Assembly: GCA_020443005.1 (NCBI GenBank)
Contig: JAGRJA010000398.1
Span: forward strand, 1 to 33,795
DNA: 33,795 nucleotides
Source: Pseudomonadales bacterium
GTDB lineage: Bacteria; Pseudomonadota; Gammaproteobacteria; Pseudomonadales; UBA7239
Reading direction: 5' to 3'
This document shows, piece after piece, positions 4,780 through 17,778 of this stretch. The first letter of the stretch is position 1; each line of letters opens with the position of its first letter. The notes below the pieces were generated by a model. That model saw nothing but the letters and a program-made list of their open reading frames with translations. It searched no databases and was not told the origin of the DNA. Position numbers and translations under genes: made by a program.

Positions 4780-5592
4780 ATGCCCGAGTTACCTGAAGTA
4801 GAAACTACCCGTCGTGGGCTTGAACCGCATTTGCTGGGTTGCAAGGTCAACGCAGTCAGGGTTTTTAACAACAAGCTTCGCTGGCCTGTAACGCCCGGTT
4901 TATCAGTCTTGCTGAATGAATTGACACTGCTTGCACTTGAGCGCAGGGGAAAATACCTCTTGTTTCGGTTCTCTGGGGGCAGCCTTTTGGTGCATCTGGG
5001 TATGTCAGGCAGTTTGCGACTGGTGGATAACAGCGAGCCTCTGAAAAAACACGATCATGTTGAGGTTACTTTCGATCGCTTTGTCATGCGTTTCAATGAC
5101 CCTCGGCGTTTTGGCGCTGTGCTTTGGGTGGAAGGTGACCCTTCGGTACATAAACTGCTGGCCTCATTAGGGCCTGAGCCCCTGTCAGAACATTTTTCCG
5201 GAGACTACCTGTTCGAGCTTTCCAGAAAGCGAACTTTACCGGTGAAAAGCTTTTTGATGGATAGTCGAGTTGTTGTGGGTGTTGGTAATATCTATGCGAA
5301 CGAGGCGTTGTTTGCTACGGGTATTCACCCGCTGAAACCTGCTGGAAAAATCACCAGAAAGCGATATACCCTGCTCGCAGAAGCGGTTGTCACCGTGCTT
5401 TGTAATGCAATCGGGTCAGGCGGAAGTACGCTCAGGGATTTTGTGAATCCGCAAGGGAAGCCAGGGTATTTTCAGCAAACCCTGAAAGTCTATGGTCGAG
5501 CAGGCTTGCCCTGTGTGGTTTGTGGCAGGCTGCTCAAGGATGTTCGGGTTGCCCAGCGAACCAGCGTATTTTGCCCTTCCTGCCAGAAATAA
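4780..5592 (+). CDS. mutM: Formamidopyrimidine-DNA glycosylase
   Basis: N-terminus is MPELPEVETTRRGL (catalytic Pro2/Glu3). The C-terminal zinc finger is CVVCG...CPSCQ. Length is 270 aa. Confidence 0.95.
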   Translation: MPELPEVETTRRGLEPHLLGCKVNAVRVFNNKLRWPVTPGLSVLLNELTLLALERRGKYLLFRFSGGSLLVHLGMSGSLRLVDNSEPLKKHDHVEVTFDRFVMRFNDPRRFGAVLWVEGDPSVHKLLASLGPEPLSEHFSGDYLFELSRKRTLPVKSFLMDSRVVVGVGNIYANEALFATGIHPLKPAGKITRKRYTLLAEAVVTVLCNAIGSGGSTLRDFVNPQGKPGYFQQTLKVYGRAGLPCVVCGRLLKDVRVAQRTSVFCPSCQK

Positions 5593-10202: not shown

Positions 10203-10869
10203 ATTCGATAATGTCAGCAAGCGTTATTCTACAGGGCACGAGGCGCTCAGTCGGGTCAGTTTTCATGTTGGGCGCGGTGAAATGGTTTTTCTCACAGGGC
10301 ATTCAGGTGCCGGAAAAAGCACGCTTCTGAAACTGCTGATGTTGATGGAGCGGCCTACCGTTGGCCAGGTAATTGTTTCTGGACATAATATAGGTCGTTT
10401 CAAGGCTTCCCGCATTCCCTACTACAGGCGGAATGTCGGTGTGGTCTTCCAGGATCACCAGCTGTTGTTTGATCGCACTGTCTTTGACAATGTGGCTCTG
10501 CCCCTGATGGTCAGTGGTTACAGTCGCCGTGAGATAGGTCGCCGTGTCCGGGCAGCGCTCGATAAAGTCGGTTTGCTGGAGAGGGAAAAGTCATTGCCGA
10601 TTGCGCTTTCGGGTGGTGAACAGCAGCGGGTTGGCATTGCGAGAGCGGTTGTTAACAAGCCGCCACTTCTTCTTGCCGACGAGCCAACGGGCAACCTCGA
10701 CCCCGAACTCTCTGCTGAAATTATGCATCTTTTTGAAGACTTTAACCGGGTTGGGGTTACTGTCTTGATCGCTACTCATGATCTGGAGCTGGTACACAGA
10801 ATGGCCTATCGGGAAATGGTGTTGCATGCCGGGCAGGTTGTTACCGAAACGGGTGACGCGAATGGCTAA
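10195..10869 (+). CDS. ftsE: Cell division ATP-binding protein FtsE
   Basis: MIKFDNVSKRY, Walker A GHSGAGKST, ABC signature LSGGEQQR, Walker B LLLADEPTGNLD. ATG 10195 overlaps the ftsY stop by 8 nt. Confidence 0.95.
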   Translation: MIKFDNVSKRYSTGHEALSRVSFHVGRGEMVFLTGHSGAGKSTLLKLLMLMERPTVGQVIVSGHNIGRFKASRIPYYRRNVGVVFQDHQLLFDRTVFDNVALPLMVSGYSRREIGRRVRAALDKVGLLEREKSLPIALSGGEQQRVGIARAVVNKPPLLLADEPTGNLDPELSAEIMHLFEDFNRVGVTVLIATHDLELVHRMAYREMVLHAGQVVTETGDANG

Positions 10870-11875
10870 AGTGTCGGTAAAAAGAGCCCCTTCCCCGGAG
10901 CGCAGCGTCGACAGGCTTAAAGGTAAAGGCGCGTCAATTGCCAAAGTCGGTGTGCAGAACAAAATGGATTCCTGGCGGGCACACCATGCCTATTCGGCGA
11001 AAATCAGCTTGCGTGACTTGCTGGCCTCCCCCTTGCAAAGCATCATGATAGGGCTTGTGATTGCGATTGCCCTCTCCCTGCCTGGAGCCCTGCTGATTGT
11101 CATTGATAATGTGCAGGCACTGGGAGAGCGCTGGAATGGCGGGGCGGGGATTACGGTTTTTCTCGAACAGAATGTCAGCCCTTCTGTTGTCGCCGGCCTC
11201 AATGATCAATTGGCGGCGAGAGAAGGCATGAAACATATTGAGTACATTTCCCCCGAGCAGGCTCTGGAGGAATTCGGTCAGGCTTCCGGTTTTGCCGATG
11301 TACTGTCACTGCTTGATGAGAACCCCTTGCCGGGTGTGTTTCTGTTGCAGCCCGATCCCTCATTTCCCGGCTCTGGGTTGCCGGCACTGCTGGAGAGCCT
11401 GCGTGACATGGAGGGTATTGCCTGGGTTCAGATGGATCTGGAGTGGGTGCAGAAACTGGATTCCATCATGTCTCTGGCACAGCGAATCACCTCTATTCTT
11501 TCATTGGTGCTGGTGTTGGGTATTGTTTTGTCTGTTGGCAATACCATCAGTCTCGCGATTGAAAGTCGTCGGGATGAAATTGTCGTGTCAAAACTGGTCG
11601 GCGCTACAGATGCTTTTGTCAGGCGGCCTTTTCTCTATACCGGGGTCTGGTACGGCCTGGCCGGAGGGATAATCGCTGTTGGTCTTCTGTTTGTAATGAC
11701 GGGAATGCTCGATGGGCCTGTGTCACGCCTGTCGGCACTTTACCAGAGTGATTTTGAGCTGAGCGGTCTTGACCTGCAATCCGCTGCCTTGATGCTCCTG
11801 GCGAGTCTTTTTCTCGGTTATGGCGGTGCCTGGCTCGCTGTGAGTCGGCACCTGCATGATATCCAGCCCCGGTAA
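10862..11875 (+). CDS. ftsX: Cell division permease-like protein FtsX
   Basis: ATG 10862 overlaps the ftsE stop by 8 nt. It has a basic N-terminus, TM1, a periplasmic domain and three C-terminal TMs, which is the typical FtsX topology and position. Confidence 0.9.
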
Positions 11876-11916: not shown

Positions 11917-11944
11917 GGAACTTTTGCCAGAGTTAGCACTCTTA
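11917..11944 (+). promoter_or_regulatory. Sigma-E (RpoE/AlgU)-type promoter candidate for rpoH
   Basis: GGAACTT (11917-11923), a 16-nt spacer, then TCTTA (11940-11944). The consensus is GGAACTT-N16-TCAAA/TCTGA. It is the only GGAACTT in an intergenic region of this window. Confidence 0.45.
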
Positions 11945-11960
11945 CTCGGGGGAGTGCTAA
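11933..11960. promoter_or_regulatory. CIRCE-like operator (HrcA-type inverted repeat) with a 10-nt spacer
   Basis: TTAGCACTC-ttactcgggg-GAGTGCTAA read directly. Both 9-nt arms are identical to the canonical CIRCE consensus TTAGCACTC-N9-GAGTGCTAA. It lies 28 nt upstream of the rpoH ATG. Confidence 0.6.
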
Positions 11961-11988
11961 AATGCGCCGATTACAGAAGGAGGATTGT

Positions 11989-12852
11989 ATGAGTTATCAA
12001 TTACAGCCTGTGAATCTGATGTCACCGGGGGCCAATATTGCCAGCTATATGCAGGCAATTCATGCTATCCCGATACTGACCGCTGATGAGGAGAATGCTC
12101 TGGCGGAGCGTTTGTATTACAAGGATGATCTCGAGGCTGCTCGCCAGCTGGTTATGTCCCACTTGCGGTTTGTTGTCCATATTGCGCGCAGCTATAACGG
12201 TTATGGCCTGAGTCAGGCGGATCTGATTCAGGAAGGCAATGTGGGTTTGATGAAAGCGGTAAAACGCTTTAATCCCGAAAAAGGGGTGAGGCTCATTTCG
12301 TTTGCTGTTCATTGGATCAAAGCTGAAATCCATGAGTTTATTTTGAAAAACTGGCGAATTGTTAAAGTTGCAACAACCAAGGCGCAGCGCAAATTGTTTT
12401 TTAACTTGCGTGGCCAGAAAAAAAGCCTTAACTGGTTGACCAATGATGAGGCAGAAGCGGTAGCAACTGATCTGGGTGTCAAGGTCAAGCAGGTTCGGGA
12501 AATGGAAAGTCGTCTCAGCGCTTATGACATGGGTTTTGATGTCGGGGCTGATGATAGTGATGACGATGCATGGCAGGCTCCGGTTAATTATCTGGAAGAT
12601 CATTCGGCAGACCCCGCCCTGATGCTGGAGAATGATAATTGGCAAAGTAATTCCGAAGACAGGTTGTATCAGGTGCTTGATGACCTGGACGAGCGAAGCA
12701 GGGATATTCTTCAGCAACGCTGGCTCGCTGACAACAAGGCTACCTTGCACGATCTTGCTGCGAAATATGATGTGTCGGCAGAGCGTATTCGCCAGCTTGA
12801 AAAAAATGCAATGGTCAAAATGAAGGCTGCAATGGGAGCGTTCAGCGCCTGA
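11989..12852 (+). CDS. rpoH: RNA polymerase sigma-32 factor
   Basis: AGGAGG lies 6 nt upstream of ATG 11989. The N-terminus is [24 protein letters not shown], the RpoH box QRKLFFNLR is present, and regions 2 to 4 are recognisable. It follows ftsYEX as in E. coli and Pseudomonas. Confidence 0.95.
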
Positions 12853-15789: not shown

Positions 15790-17124
15790 TCAAAGTATAA
15801 AGCGACTGAGATCTTCGTCGTTGGCGAGTTCGCCAAGATGTGCGTTGACATAATCGGCATCAATCACAATTGTTCGGCTGTTGCTATCTGCACCCCGGTC
15901 TGCCGCGTCGAATGAAATGTCTTCGAGTAATCGTTCCATCACAGTGTGCAAGCGCCGGGCGCCTATATTTTCAGTTCTTTCGTTGACTTCCCAGGCGGTT
16001 CTGGCTATCTCGCGGATGCCTTCAGGGCTGAATGATAATGCCACATTTTCAGTGCCGAGCAATGCGATATATTGCTCGGTCAAGGATGCGTCCGGTTCAA
16101 CAAGAATTCGTTCGAAATCATCCGTTGTCAGGGCATCCAGTTCAACGCGAATAGGCATTCTTCCTTGCAGCTCGGGAATCAGGTCAGAAGGTTTTGCAAG
16201 ATGGAAGGCACCCGATGAGATGAAAAGGATATGATCCGTTTTGATCATGCCGTATTTTGTAGAAACGGTTGACCCTTCAATCAATGGCAGCAAATCTCTT
16301 TGAACGCCTTCGCGTGATATGTCGGTTCCACCACCCTCACTGCGTTTTGCAACCTTGTCGATTTCGTCGATGAAAACGATGCCGTTTTGTTCTGCACTCT
16401 GGATCGCCCGGTTTTTCAATTCATCCTCATTGAGCATTTTCATGGCTTCTTCATCTTTTGCCATTTTTAATGCTGCCTTGACCGTCATTTTCTGCCGTTT
16501 TTTGCGCTCACCGTTCATGGAGGAGAACATGCTTTGCAACTGGCTGGTCATGTCTTCCATGCCCGGTGGTGCCATGATTTCAACCCCGACCTGGGGTGCA
16601 TTGAGTTCTATTTCGATTTCCTTGTCGTCCAGCTCGCCTTCGCGGAGTTTTTTCCGGAACATCTGACGAGTGGTGTTGTCCTTGTCTTTTTCTGTTTCCT
16701 GCCCTCGGGCGGGGGGGAGCAGCACATCGAGAATCCGTTCTTCAGCATGGTCGAGTGCACGGTGCTCAACCTTGCTGATTTCCTGCTCCTTGACCAGTTT
16801 GATGGATACTTCCACGAGATCCCTGATAATGGACTCGACATCGCGCCCCACATAGCCGACTTCAGTGAATTTTGTGGCTTCCACCTTTATGAAAGGTGCG
16901 TTGGCGAGTTTGGCCAGTCGTCTGGCGATTTCGGTTTTGCCGACGCCGGTCGGGCCTATCATCAGAATATTTTTTGGTGTGATTTCATTGCGCAGTTTTT
17001 CGTCAATCTGCATGCGGCGCCAACGGTTGCGCAAGGCGATGGCTACGGCCCTTTTGGCTGCATTCTGGCCAATGATGTGTTTGTCGAGTTCGTGAACAAT
17101 TTCTCTGGGAGTCATGTCTGGCAT
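15790..17124 (-). CDS. hslU: ATP-dependent protease ATPase subunit HslU
   Basis: [20 protein letters not shown], close to E. coli MSEMTPREIV. Walker A is [15 protein letters not shown] and IVFIDEIDK is present. Length is 444 aa. Confidence 0.97.
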
Positions 17125-17182
17125 TGTGAACTAAAGCCCTGTTGGTTGATGCTTTTTAATGATGATTGGCGCTTGGTGCTGA

Positions 17183-17716
17183 TTACAACTCTTCGATGGT
17201 TCGGTTGTGGTTGGTGTAGATACAAATATCTGCAGCAATTTCCAGACCTTTTTCAACAATACTTCTTGCGTCCATGTCGGTGCACTGGATAAGAGCTTTT
17301 GCGGCAGACTGTGCAAACGGGCCGCCGGAGCCAATTGCAATCAGGTTGTCTTCGGGTTCGATGACATCGCCATTGCCGGTAATGATCAGCGAATGGTCTT
17401 TATCGGCAACAGCAAGCAGGGCTTCAAGGCGGCGAAGGGCGCGATCCGTACGCCAGTCTTTGGCGAGTTCCACGGCGGCCCGCAACAGTTGACCCTGGTG
17501 TTTTTCGAGTTTGGCTTCAAATCGCTCGAAAAGGGTGAATGCATCGGCAGTGCCACCTGCAAAACCGGCAATCACCTGGTTTTTGTAGAGACGACGAACC
17601 TTGCGCGCGTTACCTTTCATAACGGTGTTGCCAAGGGAAACCTGACCGTCACCACCGATGACAACAGAATTGCCACGACGAACAGAAAGAATCGTTGTAC
17701 CTCGGTATTGTTCCAC
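17183..17716 (-). CDS. hslV: ATP-dependent protease peptidase subunit HslV
   Basis: GTG 17716 is preceded by GAGG 6 nt upstream and gives (M)[41 protein letters not shown]. The track ORF starts 10 codons further upstream at GTG 17746. Confidence 0.92.
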
Positions 17717-17740
17717 AAATAACCTCTGGAAATTGTCTGG

Positions 17741-17773
17741 AATCACTCAAGGTTGGGGTTATCTTGAGTGATT
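17741..17773. repeat. 11-bp perfect inverted repeat AATCACTCAAG-N11-CTTGAGTGATT between the SPOR gene and hslV
   Basis: Read directly: arms at 17741-17751 and 17763-17773, with loop gttggggttat. Confidence 0.85.
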
Positions 17774-17778
17774 TCAAG
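17751..17778 (-). promoter_or_regulatory. Sigma-32-type heat-shock promoter candidate for hslVU
   Basis: The minus strand reads ggCTTGAAA-tcactcaagataa-CCCCAACCt. The -35 is at 17772-17778, the spacer is 13 nt, and the -10 is at 17751-17758. The consensus is CTTGAAA-N13-15-CCCCATnT. It lies ~35 nt upstream of the hslV GTG. Confidence 0.55.

Follow-up and report, generated by a model that had tools for sequence, protein, structure and literature searches.

The inverted repeat between ftsX and rpoH is probably a CIRCE, the operator recognised by the HrcA repressor, which was inherited at this locus and is built into the proximal promoter of rpoH. Its 10-nt spacer likely weakens HrcA binding but need not abolish it. 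The window, by which we mean the whole stretch of DNA analysed (33,795 bases), appears to be an entire contig from a sparsely sampled gammaproteobacterium and has the local gene order rsmD (minus strand), ftsY, ftsE, ftsX and rpoH, and the identities of FtsY, FtsE, FtsX and RpoH were confirmed by family profiles. The element occupies positions 11933-11960 between ftsX and rpoH and is composed of TTAGCACTC-TTACTCGGGG-GAGTGCTAA, as read from the sequence with coordinates re-checked programmatically. The features of the region are the following.

10778-11875, forward strand: ftsX, final gene of ftsY-ftsE-ftsX, start codon uncertain (TIGR00439 FtsX_Gneg, 332 bits)
11917-11925, forward strand: predicted sigmaE (RpoE/AlgU)-type -35, GGAACTTTT, matching the E. 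coli sigmaE -35 motif at 9 of 9 positions
11933-11941, no strand assigned: CIRCE left arm, TTAGCACTC, by direct reading; across 13 orthologous sites chosen by homology, seven of the nine arm pairs show no variation
11940-11944, forward strand: predicted sigmaE-type -10, TCTTA, 16 nt past GGAACTT and spanning the junction of left arm (final 2 bases) and spacer (first 3 bases)
11942-11951, no strand assigned: spacer, TTACTCGGGG, 10 nt by direct reading; 9 nt in all relatives
11952-11960, no strand assigned: CIRCE right arm, GAGTGCTAA, by direct reading and alignment of orthologous sites
11955-11963, forward strand: predicted sigma70-type extended -10, TGcTAAAAT, formed by right-arm bases and 3 bases past the CIRCE
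11977-11983, forward strand: rpoH Shine-Dalgarno sequence, AAGGAGG, by direct reading
11989-12852, forward strand: rpoH (sigma-32), 287 aa (TIGR02392 rpoH_proteo, 405 bits; NF005143, 438 bits)

The CIRCE consensus is TTAGCACTC-N9-GAGTGCTAA (PMC545781, PMC4245973). Both arms of our element (11933-11941 and 11952-11960) agree with the canonical arms at 18 of 18 positions, and the spacer has 10 nt where the consensus has exactly 9. The placement is that of a CIRCE at the promoter and start of a heat-shock gene: the last base of the ftsX stop codon is 11875, 57 nt separate it from the element, the rpoH ATG at 11989 follows after another 28 nt, and the predicted promoters are overlapped. Another in-frame ATG at 11962-11964, 27 nt before the rpoH start and within the TAAAAT -10 region, was rejected as it has no Shine-Dalgarno sequence, and the start at 11989, with its well-spaced AAGGAGG, was preferred. 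In a pattern search for TTAGCACTC-N8-11-GAGTGCTAA, the site at 11933-11960 was the sole match in the 33,795 bases; none of 100 dinucleotide-preserving shuffles of the window contained a match, and a scan allowing five mismatches again found nothing but this site. The shuffles and the single site at five mismatches exclude a chance palindrome. The first-pass annotation had described a perfect-arm CIRCE with an N10 spacer, 57 nt after ftsX and 28 nt before rpoH, and had judged it unlikely to arise by chance; every detail of this description was confirmed, and the shuffles bear out the judgement.

The same element occurs upstream of rpoH in related genomes. With one genome taken per GTDB species, the best RpoH matches showed 60-73% identity and came from Halieaceae, Oceanospirillaceae, Pseudomonas, Marinobacter, Cellvibrionaceae and similar groups. 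Closer RpoH proteins were found in a collection of 5.8 billion proteins, namely P0002 (87% identity, on a 1.6-kb contig) followed by P0003 (74%, on a 367-kb contig of GCA_028280345.1), and the latter contig (L084) has the same gene order as the window from radC to priA. Twelve relatives bear a CIRCE: ten of the 80 genome loci selected by RpoH, together with the closest relatives L083 (87% RpoH identity) and L084 (74%, fully syntenic). The orthologous CIRCE has 0-2 mismatches; its distance to the rpoH ATG is 54-61 nt in 11 of the 12, and in the twelfth (L038) it lies at -90 from an uncertain rpoH start. The element reads GGAACTTTTGCCAGAATTAGCACTC-TTATAGGCA-GAGTGCTAAAAT in L083 and TTAGCACTC-TAACCTCCG-GAGTGCTAAAAT in L084. 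The CIRCE-bearing members of the 80 loci belong to Haliea, Halioglobus, Parahaliea, other Halieaceae and Pseudomonadales/Gammaproteobacteria MAGs; a few Cellvibrionaceae-like rpoH loci carry degenerate versions, and no CIRCE was found upstream of rpoH in the Pseudomonas, Marinobacter, Halomonas, Marinomonas, Acinetobacter and SAR86 loci examined.

Columns of the 13 aligned homology-selected promoter regions average 65% identity, yet no variation occurs in seven of the nine arm pairs. The arms have thus been kept while their flanks diverged, a pattern that is the classic footprint expected of a sequence-specific DNA-binding protein. Because the same arms stand in the same place upstream of rpoH in the relatives, we regard the element as a CIRCE by descent. 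The proposal that it is a genuine CIRCE-type operator is supported by identical arms at the equivalent position in many relatives, and the alignment of related rpoH upstream regions, suggested earlier as a check, shows the element conserved, the closest relatives included, with an N9 spacer throughout. Some divergent arrangements were also seen. A Pseudomonadota MAG (L066, positions ~2906-2964) has two tandem degenerate CIRCE-like repeats upstream of rpoH, one of them altered symmetrically in its two arms, TTGGCAGTC-N9-GACTGCTAA, which looks as though the specificities of operator and repressor had changed in step; in L018 and L052 this change is present on one side only.

Two predicted promoters are interlocked with the arms. 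In E. coli the sigmaE motif consists of the -35 element GGAACTTTT and a -10 with the consensus core TCAAA (PMC1312014). Here the predicted sigmaE-type promoter is GGAACTTTT-N14-TCTTA, with GGAACTTTT placed nine nt 5' of the left arm. The region thereby has the make-up of a P3-type sigmaE promoter, that is, a GGAACTT -35 and a TCnnA -10 about 16 nt apart upstream of rpoH, and when both strands were scanned for GGAACTT-N15-17-TCnnA this was the single match in the window. The predicted start, at ~11950-11952, falls inside the element. No rpoE/algU gene was found within the 33.8-kb window. All 12 CIRCE-bearing relatives share this arrangement; a sigmaE-type -35 (GAACTT, GAACTA or GAACC) stands at the equivalent position in each of them, as it does in many relatives that have no CIRCE, and the CIRCE-less Pseudomonas, Halopseudomonas, Stutzerimonas and Marinobacter retain a sigmaE-type promoter at ~-72. 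The predicted sigmaE-type promoter is therefore found with or without a CIRCE, and where a CIRCE is present its left arm fills the putative promoter spacer and -10. On the other side of the element, a promoter scan of the N9 relatives calls TTAGCA-18-TAAAAT, with an upstream TG, as a promoter-like sigma70-type site. In the window the corresponding sigma70-like -35/-10 spacing is 19, not 18, and the scan calls no site there. All these promoter assignments are consensus matches backed by conservation, and the starts are predicted.

A wider sample was obtained by scanning metagenomes for GAACTT-N8-10-TTAGCACTC-N8-11-GAGTGCTA, which returned at least 120 matches, 117 of them distinct among those listed. 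At least 110 of the 120 listed matches lie directly upstream of an RpoH homolog with 45-76% identity to that of the window, and for eight more the downstream sequence is too short to tell. The contigs with the motif range from 36% to 72% G+C. Ten of these RpoH proteins were looked up in their clusters, and source names were obtained for four, which were Burkholderiales and Casimicrobiaceae, Methylophilaceae, and Pseudomonadales/Gammaproteobacteria MAGs. Judged by these sequences, the interlocking of promoter and operator is widely shared among beta- and gammaproteobacteria.

Since the search pattern fixed the arms and the -35, only the free positions of the metagenome set count as evidence. 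Of the 117 distinct sites, 103 have A at spacer position 3 and 82 have T at position 1; among control CIRCE spacers from viral contigs the corresponding figures are 31% and 39%. The four free bases that follow GAGTGCTA are A, A, A and T in 102, 85, 97 and 114 of the 117 sites, respectively. Because these free positions are conserved, the sigmaE-type -10 and the TAAAAT hexamer are under selection, which speaks for real promoters. The sequence, position and conservation of the element, and the conservation of the promoter bases that overlap it, are matters of direct observation.

HrcA binding, the use of these promoters and the direction of regulation are what we infer from this arrangement. A bound HrcA would be expected to block rpoH transcription because the sigmaE-type promoter overlaps the left arm and the extended -10 overlaps the right arm. 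According to this model, an HrcA dimer sitting on both arms would cover the sigmaE-type -10, the predicted sigmaE start and the sigma70-type -10, would keep RNA polymerase off both predicted promoters, and would thereby hold down the synthesis of sigma-32. It is established for Bacillus that HrcA is kept active by GroEL and is inactivated when unfolded proteins titrate GroEL. Were the same to apply here, unfolded proteins would titrate GroEL, HrcA would become inactive and rpoH transcription would rise, such that folding stress in the cytoplasm, acting via HrcA, would gate the envelope-stress input from sigmaE.

The regulon downstream of this putative switch appears conventional. Within the window, the sequence that best matches a sigma-32-type promoter, CTTGAAA-N13-CCCCAA (one mismatch), lies at 17753-17778 on the minus strand, directly upstream of hslV-hslU (15790-17746). 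It is because hslVU carries this sequence that the sigma-32 regulon looks normal, and hslVU, on the same contig ~5 kb from rpoH, is a likely target of sigma-32. GC skew is positive in all 2-kb windows across positions 1-33795, and this uniformity suggests that the contig lies on a single replichore.

The source of the repressor was sought in several ways. Profile searches found no hrcA in the 33.8-kb contig, nor was one found in the CIRCE-rpoH genomes within the fetched rpoH loci, which were the part of these genomes covered. A typed consensus of the HrcA N-terminal domain, used as a probe, retrieved real HrcA fragments, seven of which, among the matches listed, had source names: unclassified Gammaproteobacteria, Methylococcaceae, Burkholderiales, and other Betaproteobacteria/Proteobacteria MAGs, none being attributable to Halieaceae. 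When the retrieved HrcA fragments were compared by tBLASTn with the 342 fetched loci, the sole match was L086. This 'viral' contig is really a host fragment, with an actinobacterial-looking hrcA and a CIRCE upstream of it. Cellvibrionales genomes probably carry annotated hrcA, which gives a lead; a literature search for published work on hrcA in Halieaceae found nothing usable.

The 10-nt spacer is the feature that sets this site apart. The spacer is N9 in all 132 comparable orthologous sites (12 homology-selected and 120 listed metagenome sites, with N8-N11 allowed), which makes N10 one in 133. The first-pass annotation had called this spacer exceptional, and its absence from all 132 comparable sites agrees. 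N10 as a trait of the lineage was considered and rejected, as L083 (87% RpoH identity) and L084 (74%) are both N9. A run of five Gs at 11948-11952, made up of the end of the spacer and the first base of the right arm, can accommodate the extra base, which probably lies there. Either the base is truly inserted, in which case repression is probably weakened, or the assembly is in error.

One extra base pair between the half-sites amounts to ~34 degrees of twist in standard B-DNA geometry, and setting the arms one base wider would most likely weaken HrcA binding without necessarily abolishing it. Because N9 defines the CIRCE and N10 was seen in none of the 132 sites, HrcA binding at N10 may be poor or lost, and the uniformity of N9 likewise argues that an insertion comes at a cost to HrcA binding. 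That the arms are still perfect argues for a recent insertion or for HrcA binding that persists. If real, the insertion would spare the sigmaE-type promoter but stretch the sigma70-like spacing from 18 to 19. In the literature we found no published test of HrcA on altered CIRCE spacer lengths. It is conceivable, if somewhat doubtful, that the extra base is both genuine and meaningful, in that it either detunes or removes HrcA control, leaving the sigmaE-type input dominant, or is tolerated by the HrcA of this lineage. If this were true, either outcome would provide the first natural test case for the strictness of HrcA half-site spacing.

The stronger form of the argument, in which the N10 insertion is real and the operator effectively disabled, is in our judgement unlikely. 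The rpoH gene would then rely on just two promoters, the sigmaE-type one and a weakened sigma70-type one, and the site would be a recent operator-spacing mutant whose arms have not decayed yet. Such a reading can draw on the N9 spacer of the closest relative and on the 132 orthologous sites, whose uniformity implies strong selection against a change in spacing. It can also draw on the viral contigs, where perfect-arm N10 and N8 elements are each at most ~1/10 as common as N9 and where the inspected N10 and N8 examples lie in coding or other phage contexts, none of them at chaperone promoters. However, all 18 arm bases are perfect, including positions that the overlapping promoters do not need, and this fits continued selection or a very recent event.

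The viral counts themselves were 10 perfect-arm elements for N8, at least 120 for N9, 8 for N10 and none for N11, and because the N8 and N10 contexts are phage genes or coding sequence, these numbers say little on the tolerance of HrcA. The spacer of the window agrees at 8 of 10 positions with that of L205/L206, which we judged coincidental, the L205/L206 site being inside a phage ORF. Among the IMG/VR contigs L085-L204 (for example L149, L164 and L100) the perfect-arm N9 CIRCE sometimes occurs in two or three tandem copies, as in L141, where three copies 49 bp apart span positions 5424-5548. Four other IMG/VR contigs (L214, L219, L221 and L222) carry the N8 perfect-arm variant, in each case 99 nt before one and the same small phage ORF (MTKEAKMKTYG...); their palindrome extends past the CIRCE arms and may be a different hairpin or operator that merely resembles a CIRCE.

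We consider it quite improbable that the tenth base arose as an indel during sequencing or assembly of the five-G homopolymer at 11948-11952 and that the true element is an ordinary N9 CIRCE. The extra base can indeed be placed in the run of five Gs, a natural N10 is itself rare (0 of 132), and no second assembly of the region was found: exact look-ups of RpoH (with two candidate starts), FtsX and the DUF423 protein gave no other contig, and those of HslU gave only two short contigs. Against an indel stand 165 homopolymer runs of at least 5 nt inside 25 intact genes that match their family profiles over essentially the full length, and the rate of indel error per run should therefore be at most ~2%. 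A natural N10 is just as rare, so by these counts a real mutation and an artefact weigh about the same. The two short contigs, L081 and L082 (~1.5 kb each, from the ENA metagenome assemblies ERZ28655987 and ERZ27309212), encode an HslU identical to that of the window, from which it follows that at least two other samples contain this organism or one very closely related to it.

The earlier alternative of an RNA hairpin in transcripts reading in from ftsX, here taken as one that would stabilise the ftsYEX read-through RNA, mark a processing site or attenuate, in place of a DNA site bound by a protein, is very improbable: an 11-bp stem with a 6-nt loop is predicted (-17.2 kcal/mol, z = -2.5) and a weak terminator-like hairpin lies just past ftsX, but the arms are conserved as sequence, with every base that of the CIRCE consensus in beta- and gammaproteobacteria alike, and there is no covariation (seven of nine pairs invariant, no double changes, two sequences with an unpaired change), no U tract follows the stem on its 3' side, the Shine-Dalgarno sequence is untouched, the larger region folds no better than shuffles (z = -1.1 and -0.4), and any RNA made from the predicted sigmaE promoter would have its 5' end within the repeat. 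Neither of the marks of a structured RNA, compensatory changes or a curated family match, was found, with no Rfam match at gathering thresholds and no tRNA.

A CIRCE operator at rpoH, the reading we prefer, can be compared with three known systems. The CIRCE of the groESL and hrcA-grpE-dnaK operons in Bacillus subtilis and many other bacteria has the same arms (18 of 18) and the same placement at the promoter or start of a heat-shock gene, and in both cases repression is expected to be relieved when the chaperonin is titrated. Here, unlike there, the target is the gene for sigma-32 and not a chaperone operon, the spacer is 10 nt instead of 9, and the operator is fused to a predicted sigmaE-type promoter rather than to a housekeeping one.

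The second system is the rpoH gene of Geobacter sulfurreducens, for which TTAGCACTC-N9-GAGTGCTAA is tabulated at -51 (Rodionov et al. 2004, Table 8, PMC545781); the CIRCE and sigma-32 profiles of that work were taken from Permina & Gelfand 2003 (PMC545781). The first-pass annotation had considered a CIRCE before rpoH unusual. This does not hold, as the arrangement is tabulated for G. sulfurreducens (PMC545781) and occurs also in Halieaceae, other Pseudomonadales-type gammaproteobacteria, Burkholderiales and Methylophilaceae. Because of the Geobacter entry, a repressor-over-sigma cascade is a known kind of circuit. The two sites are alike in their distance to the rpoH start (-51 there, -56 here) and in the cascade of HrcA over sigma-32 that they imply; they differ in lineage at the level of the phylum, in the N10 spacer of our site, and in the conserved sigmaE-type -35 and TAAAAT -10 that here interlock with the arms. 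The Permina and Gelfand survey reportedly covered beta-, gamma- and epsilon-proteobacteria, and Ueki and Lovley are said to have studied the rpoH of G. sulfurreducens in 2007.

The third system, rpoH P3 of E. coli, is a sigmaE-dependent promoter that has been used as a reporter (PMC1312014). Both loci have a sigmaE-type promoter directly upstream of rpoH and downstream of ftsYEX, and the -35 of the window matches GGAACTTTT at 9 of 9 positions with a 16-nt spacing to TCnnA. E. coli, in contrast, is without HrcA or CIRCE, whereas here the left arm lies in the spacer and -10 of the predicted promoter. The rpoH promoters of E. coli are modulated by DnaA and CRP/CytR.

By sequence comparison, then, the arrangement of a CIRCE at rpoH is neither rare nor new, and the present site is a new example of it in a poorly sampled gammaproteobacterial lineage. 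The sharing of bases between the operator and the sigmaE-type and sigma70-type promoters, and the breadth of its conservation, may be less appreciated, and we found in the literature no experimental test of the interlocked design in beta- or gammaproteobacteria. The N10 spacer matters only if it is real, in which case it would be a ready-made natural mutant for the spacing sensitivity of HrcA. The combination of a sigmaE-type -10 with the left arm and an extended -10 with the right arm is, by this survey, a common design in beta- and gammaproteobacteria and not the curiosity of one genome. By this design the HrcA/GroEL folding sensor would sit on the promoter that feeds envelope stress, through sigmaE, into the sigma-32 regulon, and the three main proteotoxic-stress systems of bacteria would converge on ~50 bp of DNA.
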